The translations under genes and the position numbers were made by a program. DNA of 64,000 nucleotides, taken from Escherichia coli (GTDB taxonomy: Bacteria; Pseudomonadota; Gammaproteobacteria; Enterobacterales; Enterobacteriaceae). Location of the stretch: assembly GCF_003334405.1 (NCBI RefSeq), contig NZ_QOWM01000007.1, one strand, 5' to 3'. Numbering within the stretch: position 1 is the first letter of the stretch; each line of letters begins with the position of its first letter. The notes below the pieces were generated by a model that was given only the letters and a program-made list of their open reading frames with translations, did no database searches and was not told the origin of the DNA. This document shows, one piece after another, positions 14,136 through 16,566 of this stretch.

Positions 14136-15752
14136 ATGCTCAGTCAAATTCAACGCTTTGGCGGCGCGATGTTCACGCCAGTGCTGCTGTTTCCCTTCGC
14201 CGGGATTGTGGTGGGTCTTGCCATCTTGCTGCAAAACCCGATGTTTGTCGGGGAATCACTGACCGATCCGAACAGTTTATTCGCGCAAATCGTACACATT
14301 ATTGAAGAGGGCGGTTGGACGGTATTCCGTAATATGCCGCTGATTTTTGCTGTCGGTTTACCCATTGGCCTTGCTAAGCAAGCGCAGGGGCGTGCTTGTC
14401 TGGCGGTGATGGTGAGTTTCCTGACCTGGAACTATTTCATCAACGCGATGGGAATGACCTGGGGAAGCTACTTCGGCGTCGATTTCACTCAGGACGCGGT
14501 GGCAGGTAGCGGTCTGACAATGATGGCCGGGATTAAAACCCTCGATACCAGCATTATCGGCGCAATTATCATTTCCGGCATTGTGACGGCGCTGCATAAC
14601 CGTCTGTTCGATAAAAAACTGCCGGTTTTTCTCGGCATTTTCCAGGGGACGTCTTATGTGGTGATTATCGCCTTCCTGGTGATGATCCCCTGTGCCTGGC
14701 TGACGTTGCTCGGCTGGCCAAAAGTACAAATGGGGATTGAATCTCTGCAAGCGTTCCTGCGTTCGGCGGGTGCACTTGGGGTCTGGGTTTACACCTTCCT
14801 CGAACGTATTCTGATCCCAACCGGTTTACACCACTTCATCTACGGACAGTTTATCTTTGGTCCGGCAGCTGTTGAAGGCGGCATTCAGATGTACTGGGCG
14901 CAGCATCTGCAAGAGTTCAGTTTGAGCGCCGAGCCGCTGAAATCGTTGTTCCCGGAAGGCGGTTTTGCCCTGCACGGTAACTCAAAAATCTTTGGTGCCG
15001 TGGGCATTTCTTTAGCGATGTACTTCACTGCCGCACCGGAAAATCGGGTAAAAGTGGCGGGCTTGCTGATTCCCGCAACCTTAACCGCCATGCTGGTGGG
15101 AATTACCGAACCGCTGGAATTTACCTTCCTGTTCATTTCACCGTTGCTGTTTGCGGTACACGCCGTGCTGGCGGCCTCAATGTCGACCGTAATGTATCTC
15201 TTTGGTGTGGTGGGCAACATGGGCGGAGGTCTGATTGACCAGGTTTTACCGCAAAACTGGATCCCGATGTTCAGCAACCACGCGGATATGATGCTGACCC
15301 AAATCGCCATTGGGTTGTGCTTTACCCTGCTGTACTTCGTGGTTTTCCGCACACTGATTCTGCAGTTCAACATGTGCACGCCGGGACGTGAAGATGCGGA
15401 AGTGAAACTCTACTCAAAAGCCGAATACAAAGCCTCGCGAGGCCAAACCACCGCGGCAGAGCCAAAAAAAGAGCTGGATCAGGCTGCCGGTATCCTGCAA
15501 GCCCTGGGCGGGGTCGGCAATATCTCCAGCATTAACAATTGCGCGACGCGTTTACGTATTGCACTGCATGACATGTCACAAACGCTGGATGACGAAGTCT
15601 TTAAAAAGCTGGGAGCGCACGGCGTCTTCCGTAGTGGCGATGCCATTCAGGTGATCATTGGTCTGCATGTATCTCAGCTGCGTGAACAGCTCGATAGCTT
15701 AATTAATTCTCATCAATCAGCAGAAAATGTTGCCATTACGGAGGCAGTATAA
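14136..15752 (+). CDS. glvC: PTS alpha-glucoside (arbutin-like) EIICB component, fused IIC-IIB
   Basis: ORF 13875..15752 trimmed to [18 protein letters not shown]... (538 aa) with Shine-Dalgarno aagagga at 14122-14128; the C-terminal IIB segment contains [12 protein letters not shown] with the phosphorylatable Cys. Confidence 0.85.
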
Positions 15753-16566
15753 TGACCAAATTCTCAGTGGTTGTCGCAGGCGGTGGAAGCACCTTTACGC
15801 CAGGCATCGTGTTGATGCTCCTGGCGAATCAGGACCGTTTCCCGCTTCGTGCACTGAAATTTTATGATAACGATGGTGCGCGGCAGGAAGTGATTGCCGA
15901 AGCCTGTAAAGTCATCCTTAAAGAAAAAGCGCCGGACATTGCGTTTAGTTACACCACCGATCCTGAAGTGGCATTCAGCGACGTTGATTTTGTCATGGCG
16001 CACATCCGCGTCGGCAAATACCCGATGCGCGAACTGGATGAAAAAATCCCGCTGCGCCACGGCGTTGTTGGTCAGGAAACTTGCGGACCCGGCGGAATAG
16101 CGTACGGCATGCGTTCCATTGGCGGCGTCCTGGAACTGGTGGATTATATGGAAAAATATTCACCAAATGCCTGGATGCTCAACTACTCCAACCCGGCAGC
16201 CATTGTCGCAGAAGCCACGCGTCGTCTGCGCCCGAATGCGAAAATCCTCAACATCTGTGACATGCCAATCGGTATTGAAAGCCGGATGGCGCAAATTGTT
16301 GGGCTGCAAGATCGCAAACAGATGCGCGTGCGCTACTACGGCCTGAACCACTGGTGGTCGGCGATATCCCGCAGTTTCAGAAAGGGTTAATGAGTCAGCA
16401 AGTGGCGGTGGAAAAACTGGTCGTGGACGCCTGGGAACAGCGTTCATATCAGCACCTGTGGCAGGCGATTACGTTGTCGAAAACGGTACCGAGCGCCTCG
16501 GTCGCCAAAGCTATTCTGGATGAGTTGCTGGAGGCCAACAAAGCGTACTGGCCAGAGTTACGTTAA
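15752..16566 (+). pseudogene. glvG: Truncated 6-phospho-alpha-glucosidase (glycoside hydrolase family 4)
   Basis: 212-aa N-terminal fragment (15752..16390) then a separate 70-aa frame (16354..16566) that I read as a C-terminal remnant; total span about 815 bp versus roughly 1.3 kb for an intact GH4 enzyme, so a frameshift plus internal deletion is inferred. Confidence 0.7.

Follow-up and report, generated by a model that had tools for sequence, protein, structure and literature searches.

Can a sugar-uptake operon that has lost its hydrolase keep its transporter? This question is raised by the glv locus in a 64,000-nt stretch of Escherichia coli DNA (contig NZ_QOWM01000007.1; hereafter the window, whose positions are used below), where an open transporter gene is followed by a broken hydrolase gene. 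The locus is a yidP-glvBC-glvG module, which consists of a divergent gene for a GntR/HutC regulator, a gene for an alpha-glucoside-type enzyme IICB of the phosphotransferase system (PTS), and the gene of an NAD/Mn-dependent 6-phospho-alpha-glucosidase of glycoside hydrolase family 4 (GH4). The comparisons reported here suggest, with a probability of about 0.85, that this is a glv module with a hydrolase destroyed by deletion and an ancestral, still open transporter that is now drifting. A single 508-bp deletion destroyed glvG, and the K-12 lineage later gained a CAG-to-TAG change at codon 369 of the transporter gene. Judged from its genes, the pathway would at best import and phosphorylate an alpha-glucoside, the product of which would not be hydrolysed. 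Because the hydrolase was lost and the product could not be hydrolysed, the orphaned transporter would no longer be protected by selection and would drift, presumably with loss of its transport function.

The hydrolase remnant, the glvG pseudogene, occupies 815 bp on the plus strand (15752-16566). It was aligned to the gene at the same place in E. coli O157:H7 Z903, which is 1323 bp long and encodes an intact 6-phospho-alpha-glucosidase of 440 amino acids (aa; WP_000160122.1). The alignment showed six substitutions and one gap of 508 bp. In the intact gene the segment corresponding to the gap is flanked by two 8-bp direct repeats, GAACCACT, a single copy of which remains in the window at the deletion junction (16345-16352, plus strand). 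Replication slippage or illegitimate recombination between the two GAACCACT copies would be the simplest account of the deletion. The loss removes residues 201-370 of the enzyme (170 codons) and, since 508 is not a multiple of three, shifts the reading frame. The remnant does not form a full-length GH4 enzyme (about 440 aa with domains PF02056 and PF11975) and lies in two pieces in different frames, both on the plus strand. The N-terminal frame of 212 aa (15752-16390) comprises enzyme residues 1-200 followed by 12 out-of-frame residues and a stop codon, and the C-terminal frame of 70 aa (16354-16566), with a GTG start, corresponds to enzyme residues 371-440. The original prediction, made from the letters of the window, had described the hydrolase as a 212-aa N-terminal fragment plus a 70-aa out-of-frame tail in about 815 bp and had put an intact GH4 gene at about 1.3 kb. 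Both the collinearity of the two pieces with the O157:H7 enzyme and the length of its gene agree with that description, and the tail proved to be a genuine GH4 C-terminus. The arrangement of frames is accordingly no product of chance. The 70-aa frame was also considered as an independent small gene; this was rejected, as the frame equals enzyme residues 371-440 and has no family match of its own.

The 212-aa frame retains the GGGS NAD-binding motif (residue 10) and the presumed metal and catalytic residues Cys169-Asp170 and His200. From the offset of the GlvA match, the latter residues are presumably the counterparts of Cys171, Asp172 and His202 of Bacillus subtilis GlvA. Tyr263 of the intact E. 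coli enzyme, presumably equivalent to the catalytic Tyr265 of GlvA, falls within the deleted residues 201-370, so that the remnant has neither this Tyr nor the substrate-binding segment of the C-terminal half. Two structures were matched by the intact E. coli GH4 protein over its full length, namely PDB 6DUX (E=7e-274) and that of B. subtilis GlvA (1U8X; E=9e-224). The protein also shares 75-89% identity with proteins from Enterobacterales to Leptotrichia and Clostridium that are named 6-phospho-alpha-glucosidase or maltose-6'-phosphate glucosidase. The record of 6DUX names the molecule 6-phospho-alpha-glucosidase, and the structure is presumably that of a Klebsiella protein. The remnant is annotated as a pseudogene in E. 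coli K-12 MG1655 and as "frameshifted" by RefSeq in nine wild strains, which were all the wild deletion strains examined.

The transporter gene glvBC lies immediately upstream on the plus strand (14136-15752), and its TAA stop codon (15750-15752) overlaps the ATG of the 212-aa glvG frame (TAATG). It is preceded by the Shine-Dalgarno sequence AAGAGGA (14122-14128), 7 nt ahead of the ATG. The list of open reading frames and the sequence agree that glvBC is one uninterrupted IIC-IIB frame of 538 aa with a good Shine-Dalgarno, as the original prediction had it. In MG1655 the same region is annotated as glvC (b3683; 368 aa), glvB (b3682; 161 aa) and the pseudogene glvG (b4556), the two transporter entries and their lengths being those that the prediction had given. 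The pseudogene b4556 (3861173-3861987) maps exactly onto 15752-16566 of the window. Pairwise alignment of 13000-17600 with MG1655 revealed one differing base in 4.6 kb, the C at 15240. This single C-to-T change (MG1655 3862499) separates codon 369 of the window, CAG for Gln (15240-15242, plus strand), from an amber TAG in MG1655 (3862497-3862499), and the amber codon is the reason why K-12 annotates glvC and glvB separately. The MG1655 gene is accordingly not a single continuous frame, and the fused form is a real strain difference, as had been supposed.

The direction of this difference was read from other genomes, with allele counts taken as exact 61-mer matches among 5,426 complete E. coli genomes. 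The C allele at codon 369 was found in 3223 genomes and the T allele in 348. Among the 60 T-allele matches listed, all carriers were laboratory strains, mostly named K-12 derivatives; strains with this allele include MG1655, DH5alpha, DH1, C600, J53, NCM3722 and HMS174. Single-chain IICB orthologs of 535-540 aa were found in Enterobacter hormaechei, Citrobacter rodentium, Erwinia tasmaniensis and Serratia aquatilis, and the 538-aa frame was present in 19 of the 19 non-K-12 E. coli loci sampled, the window included (strain CFS3292, described below, was set aside). Because the orthologs in four genera are single IICB chains and the amber was found, among the matches listed, only in laboratory strains, the continuous 538-aa frame is the ancestral form and the K-12 split is a derived nonsense allele, which refines the prediction of a strain difference. 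As the lost codon specifies Gln, supE44 (glnV44) strains, which insert Gln at UAG, would make some full-length GlvBC, ancestral apart from a Pro-to-Gln replacement at residue 238 (P238Q).

Family models were used to place the transporter. On NCBIfam TIGR02005 (alpha-glucoside-specific IIBC), which has its cutoff at 607.3, GlvBC scored 954.7 bits over profile positions 1-524 of 524; it fell below the cut-offs of the glucose, N-acetylglucosamine (GlcNAc), MalX and beta-glucoside NCBIfam models. The domain order is TIGR00852 (IIC; residues 60-358) followed by TIGR00826 (EIIB; residues 410-509), with the IIA domain absent, and the orthologs in the four other genera contain only PF02378 and PF00367. 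The functional motifs of the Glc family are GITE in IIC and a phosphorylatable Cys in IIB. The corresponding GITEP (residues 322-326) and NNCATRLR (residues 467-474, with Cys469) of GlvBC were invariant in a six-sequence alignment, and the protein is 76% identical to the 539-aa Erwinia ortholog. These matches point to an alpha-glucoside-type PTS enzyme IICB, the substrate class being that of the family. If GlvBC works like Klebsiella AglA and B. subtilis GlvC, its phosphate donor would be IIA-Glc (Crr), the E. coli form of which serves AglA (PMC5309279). The older label "arbutin-specific", in use for glvC in PMC2617782 among others, is not supported and would appear to be a legacy guess, as the family evidence favours alpha-glucosides and not the beta-glucoside arbutin. 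A recent review (PMC10305011) enters glvBC as an alpha-glucoside EIICB.

The names given to the protein in databases differ from this placement in another respect. For the full 538-aa IICB of the E. coli loci examined, the RefSeq name is "PTS sugar transporter subunit IIB". One NCBIfam equivalog, NF007255, has 161 positions, and its match in GlvBC covers residues 378-538, the stretch that makes up the K-12 GlvB fragment (window 15267-15752). Built on the 161-aa fragment, this model plausibly explains the RefSeq label, which would then be an artefact spread from the nonsense allele.

Constraint on the open transporter was assessed in 20 sequences, comprising 11 alleles with the glvG deletion and nine alleles with an intact operon. 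The 1617-bp glvBC frame was present in all 20 alleles, with an internal stop only in K-12. In a twelfth deletion strain, CFS3292, the IS5-like element ISKpn26 is inserted in the 3' end of glvBC (extracted locus 1972-2952). The group-private nonsynonymous to synonymous ratio (N:S) in glvBC was 8:8 in the deletion group and 5:47 in the intact group (Fisher p=0.0012). In the glvG remnant of the same deletion strains it was 5:3, which is statistically indistinguishable from 8:8 (Fisher p=0.68). The nine intact-operon strains, with nine different DNA sequences, encode four GlvBC protein variants, against eight in the 11 deletion strains. The 815-bp glvG remnant contained no insertions or deletions across the same 11 strains.

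One of these replacements is carried by the window. Its GlvBC differs from the protein that recurs in intact operons (O157:H7, IAI39, B and others) solely at residue 238, where codon CAG (14847-14849, plus strand) encodes Gln. This is a derived replacement of a proline that is present in O157 and in the four other genera, and the aligned position in E. coli PtsG is likewise Pro. The replaced residue is the proline of an LHH-x4-P motif in IIC; His232 and His233 are present, so that the conserved motif is incomplete by its last position. Gln238 occurred in six of the 11 sampled deletion alleles, K-12 also carrying it, and in none of the nine intact ones; the exact 61-mer with CAG at codon 238 was found in 1783 of the 4275 genomes with the locus. 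We read glvBC as being under relaxed constraint after the loss of its partner enzyme, so that "intact" would denote an open frame only. The description of glvC as intact in the original prediction accordingly stood with respect to the frame, and did not stand with respect to the conserved proline and to constraint in the deletion lineages.

Next, the spread of the glv states was determined over the complete genomes. The locus was present in 4,275 of 5,426. The 508-bp segment is kept in 1,653 genomes, among them O157:H7, O55:H7, IAI39 and E. coli B, and these are annotated with a full 6-phospho-alpha-glucosidase. The exact 61-mer of the deletion junction was found in 2,643 genomes, a number consistent with 4,275 minus 1,653, and about 1,150 genomes have yidL only and are without the glv locus. 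The intact, enzyme-deleted and wholly deleted states account for approximately 30%, 48% and 21% of complete genomes, respectively. In an ST131 genome (phylogroup B2), all that is left of yidP between yidE and yidL is about 100 nt of its 3' end, and yidL is without its last codons; the absent state in this genome is a deletion of about 3.4 kb, roughly window 13228-16595. Touchon et al. 2009 (PMC2617782) tabulated glvC as absent from B2 strains.

The reading of a drifting transporter draws on the P238Q replacement in the window, the K-12 amber, the IS5-like insertion in CFS3292 and the surplus of amino-acid changes in the deletion lineages. Several points weigh against it. With singletons only, the N:S contrast was 6:6 versus 5:18 (p=0.13), and the contrast over this small sample of 20 sequences is confounded by polymorphisms that are younger and less filtered by selection in the deletion lineages. 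Of the 11 deletion alleles, 10 (all but that of K-12) still have an open frame, and the deletion is old enough to occur in diverse backgrounds, which leaves room for residual selection. No sigma-70 consensus promoter was found in 13780-14200, and the operon may simply be silent. If selection did keep the transporter without GlvG, it would act, for example, through uptake of glucose or another sugar, the phosphate of which would enter glycolysis directly or be cleaved by another enzyme, or through a signalling role of the PTS phosphorylation state. In favour of such selection, the open deletion alleles come from varied hosts and countries, and the locus has kept its regulator, the conserved blocks of the spacer and the ribosome-binding site. 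However, amino-acid changes are enriched in the deletion lineages (8:8 versus 5:47) to a degree resembling that in the dead glvG, a conserved proline is replaced in the allele of the window, and independent knock-outs have arisen through the K-12 amber and the IS5 insertion. Moreover, since the neutral 815-bp remnant has accumulated no insertions or deletions in the same 11 strains, an open frame at this time depth is weak evidence of selection. Maintenance of the transporter by selection is considered very unlikely.

A rather unlikely explanation is that inactivation of the transporter has been positively selected. GlvBC without GlvG would load the cell with non-metabolisable phospho-alpha-glucosides and cause sugar-phosphate stress, which would make changes such as P238Q, Q369amber and the IS5 insertion adaptive and not a matter of neutral drift. 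The occurrence of P238Q in about 1783 of some 2,600 deletion genomes and the several independent disruptive events fit such selection, and a build-up of methyl-alpha-glucoside 6-phosphate is reportedly toxic to E. coli K-12. However, the N:S ratio of 8:8 is not above that expected under neutrality, the frame is still open in most deletion alleles, and the frequency of P238Q is explicable by hitch-hiking within phylogroup A clones; the explanation also presupposes that the operon is expressed. It would make the locus a case of ordered decay within one species, in which the hydrolase is lost first, by a single microhomology deletion present in about half of sequenced E. coli, and the transporter is then repeatedly disabled because import of a sugar that can be neither dephosphorylated nor cleaved is harmful; an adaptive second step of this kind is similarly improbable. 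An origin of the deletion and frameshift as a sequencing or assembly artefact, or of the continuous frame as a recent strain-specific fusion, has practically no likelihood. Its one starting point, that a single window was read, is refuted by the identical junction in about 2,600 complete genomes of independent assembly and by a continuous IICB of 535-540 aa in every non-K-12 E. coli of the 20-locus comparison and in four genera. The preferred reading remains that of a deletion-destroyed hydrolase followed by drift of the transporter.

Upstream of glvBC and divergent from it lies yidP (13124-13840, minus strand), which encodes a GntR/HutC-type regulator of 238 aa with NCBIfam GntR-family matches and equals MG1655 b3684. 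A divergent GntR+UTRA gene (the neighbours contain PF00392 and PF07702) was found beside the IICB-GH4 pair in Enterobacter, Citrobacter, Erwinia and Serratia, where the GH4 partner is 440 aa long. In Erwinia and Serratia every other neighbour of the module differs, and the GntR+UTRA gene is still there. YidP shares 69% identity with the regulator in the Erwinia neighbourhood, and most of yidP has been lost along with the glv genes in the ST131 genome. As predicted, YidP is likely the local regulator of the glv operon, in view of the gene order in four genera and the co-loss in ST131. A literature search on yidP found no paper testing its target. In E. coli B-ZidR (NZ_CP117469.1), glvBC and glvG are intact and yidP is annotated as frameshifted (locus positions 1-196). 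If YidP is a repressor, E. coli B strains may express the glv operon constitutively.

The intergenic control region between yidP and glvBC (13841-14135; 295 bp) was examined for repeats and in a five-genus alignment. Positions 13957-13990 form a near-palindrome of 34 bp (AGAGGTCTAC...GTAGATCTCT), to which a box beside the yidP start, TAGATCTCT (13844-13852), is related. A third element, the CRP-site-like block AAGCATGAAAGCGATCACGAAT, occupies 14004-14025. From E. coli to Erwinia and Serratia, conservation within the spacer was confined to these three elements. The near-palindrome together with the 13844-13852 box is a candidate YidP operator, and 14004-14025 a candidate CRP-type activator site. 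A scan of 13780-14200 detected no intrinsic terminator, and an Rfam scan of the entire window gave no family within 13000-17600.

On the other side of the module, the AraC-type regulator gene yidL (16563-17456, minus strand) converges on the end of glvG with a 4-bp overlap. It is kept in the ST131 genome and is missing beside the module in Enterobacter, Erwinia and Serratia; by this distribution it belongs with yidK/yidJ and not with glv. In strain AR_0019, yidL has an internal stop (extracted locus 2764-2901).

The locus can be compared with several known systems. MG1655 glvC/glvB/glvG is the same locus with the same 508-bp glvG deletion and differs by its TAG at codon 369, whereas the operon of O157:H7, IAI39, B and others, at the same chromosomal site, keeps the full 1323-bp glvG. 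Klebsiella pneumoniae AglA (IICB) and AglB have the same two-gene design and belong to the same families, so that the E. coli locus is the counterpart of aglA/aglB. The Klebsiella genes are functional and allow growth on isomaltose and other alpha-linked glucosides, whereas the hydrolase is deleted in the window. B. subtilis GlvA (MalA; 1U8X) and GlvC (MalP) follow the same logic of GH4 plus IICB for maltose and alpha-glucosides but are more distant in sequence, and the B. subtilis glv operon is under GlvR of the RpiR family, not a GntR/HutC regulator. The bgl, asc and chb/cel systems are likewise PTS systems for glycosides; in laboratory strains they are silent or in part inactivated, and within the species they are polymorphic. 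They are mostly silenced by regulation and can be reactivated by mutation; glvG, in contrast, has lost 170 codons and cannot revert.

The glvG pseudogene is already known and annotated (MG1655, RefSeq), and the locus is an ordinary decayed operon; the K-12 homologs of aglA/aglB have been described as "cryptic or nonfunctional truncated proteins" (PMC5309279, citing Reizer 1994 and Thompson 1995). The end points of the deletion and its repeat, the frequencies of the alleles, the finding of the amber in laboratory K-12-type strains only, and P238Q with the relaxed constraint are possibly undocumented so far and constitute an incremental addition. For annotation, the K-12 entries glvC and glvB represent a single gene that an amber of the K-12 lineage has cut in two. 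The strains that keep the complete operon (O157:H7, IAI39 and E. coli B) are those suited to work on the utilisation of isomaltose or palatinose, and the glv locus may serve as a teaching example of stepwise gene loss.

Beyond the glv locus, the entire window aligns without rearrangement to the reverse complement of MG1655 (3877738-3813739), with an identity of 99.62%. The rph gene is full length (61190-61906; 238 aa from an MRPAGR start), whereas MG1655 is without a G at 3815884, which truncates its RNase PH; this is presumably the known allele rph-1. From the full-length rph and the difference at the glv locus, the window comes from a close relative of K-12 and not from MG1655 itself. At selC (tRNA-Sec; 41427-41517), the identity to MG1655 shifts abruptly, with six substitutions in 1-40,000 and about 1% divergence from approximately 41,600 onward. 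The selC gene is an integration hot spot, and a selC-linked island was considered as the context of the locus. It was rejected, as the window is colinear with MG1655 and contains no large insertion; selC looks like a recombination boundary at which an island insertion is absent. Other Rfam matches in the window were the ES036 (CssrF) small RNA (77-119, minus strand), the ROSE_2 thermoregulator upstream of ibpA (10251-10323, plus strand) and istR (24492-24621, plus strand), all at the positions expected from the MG1655 map.

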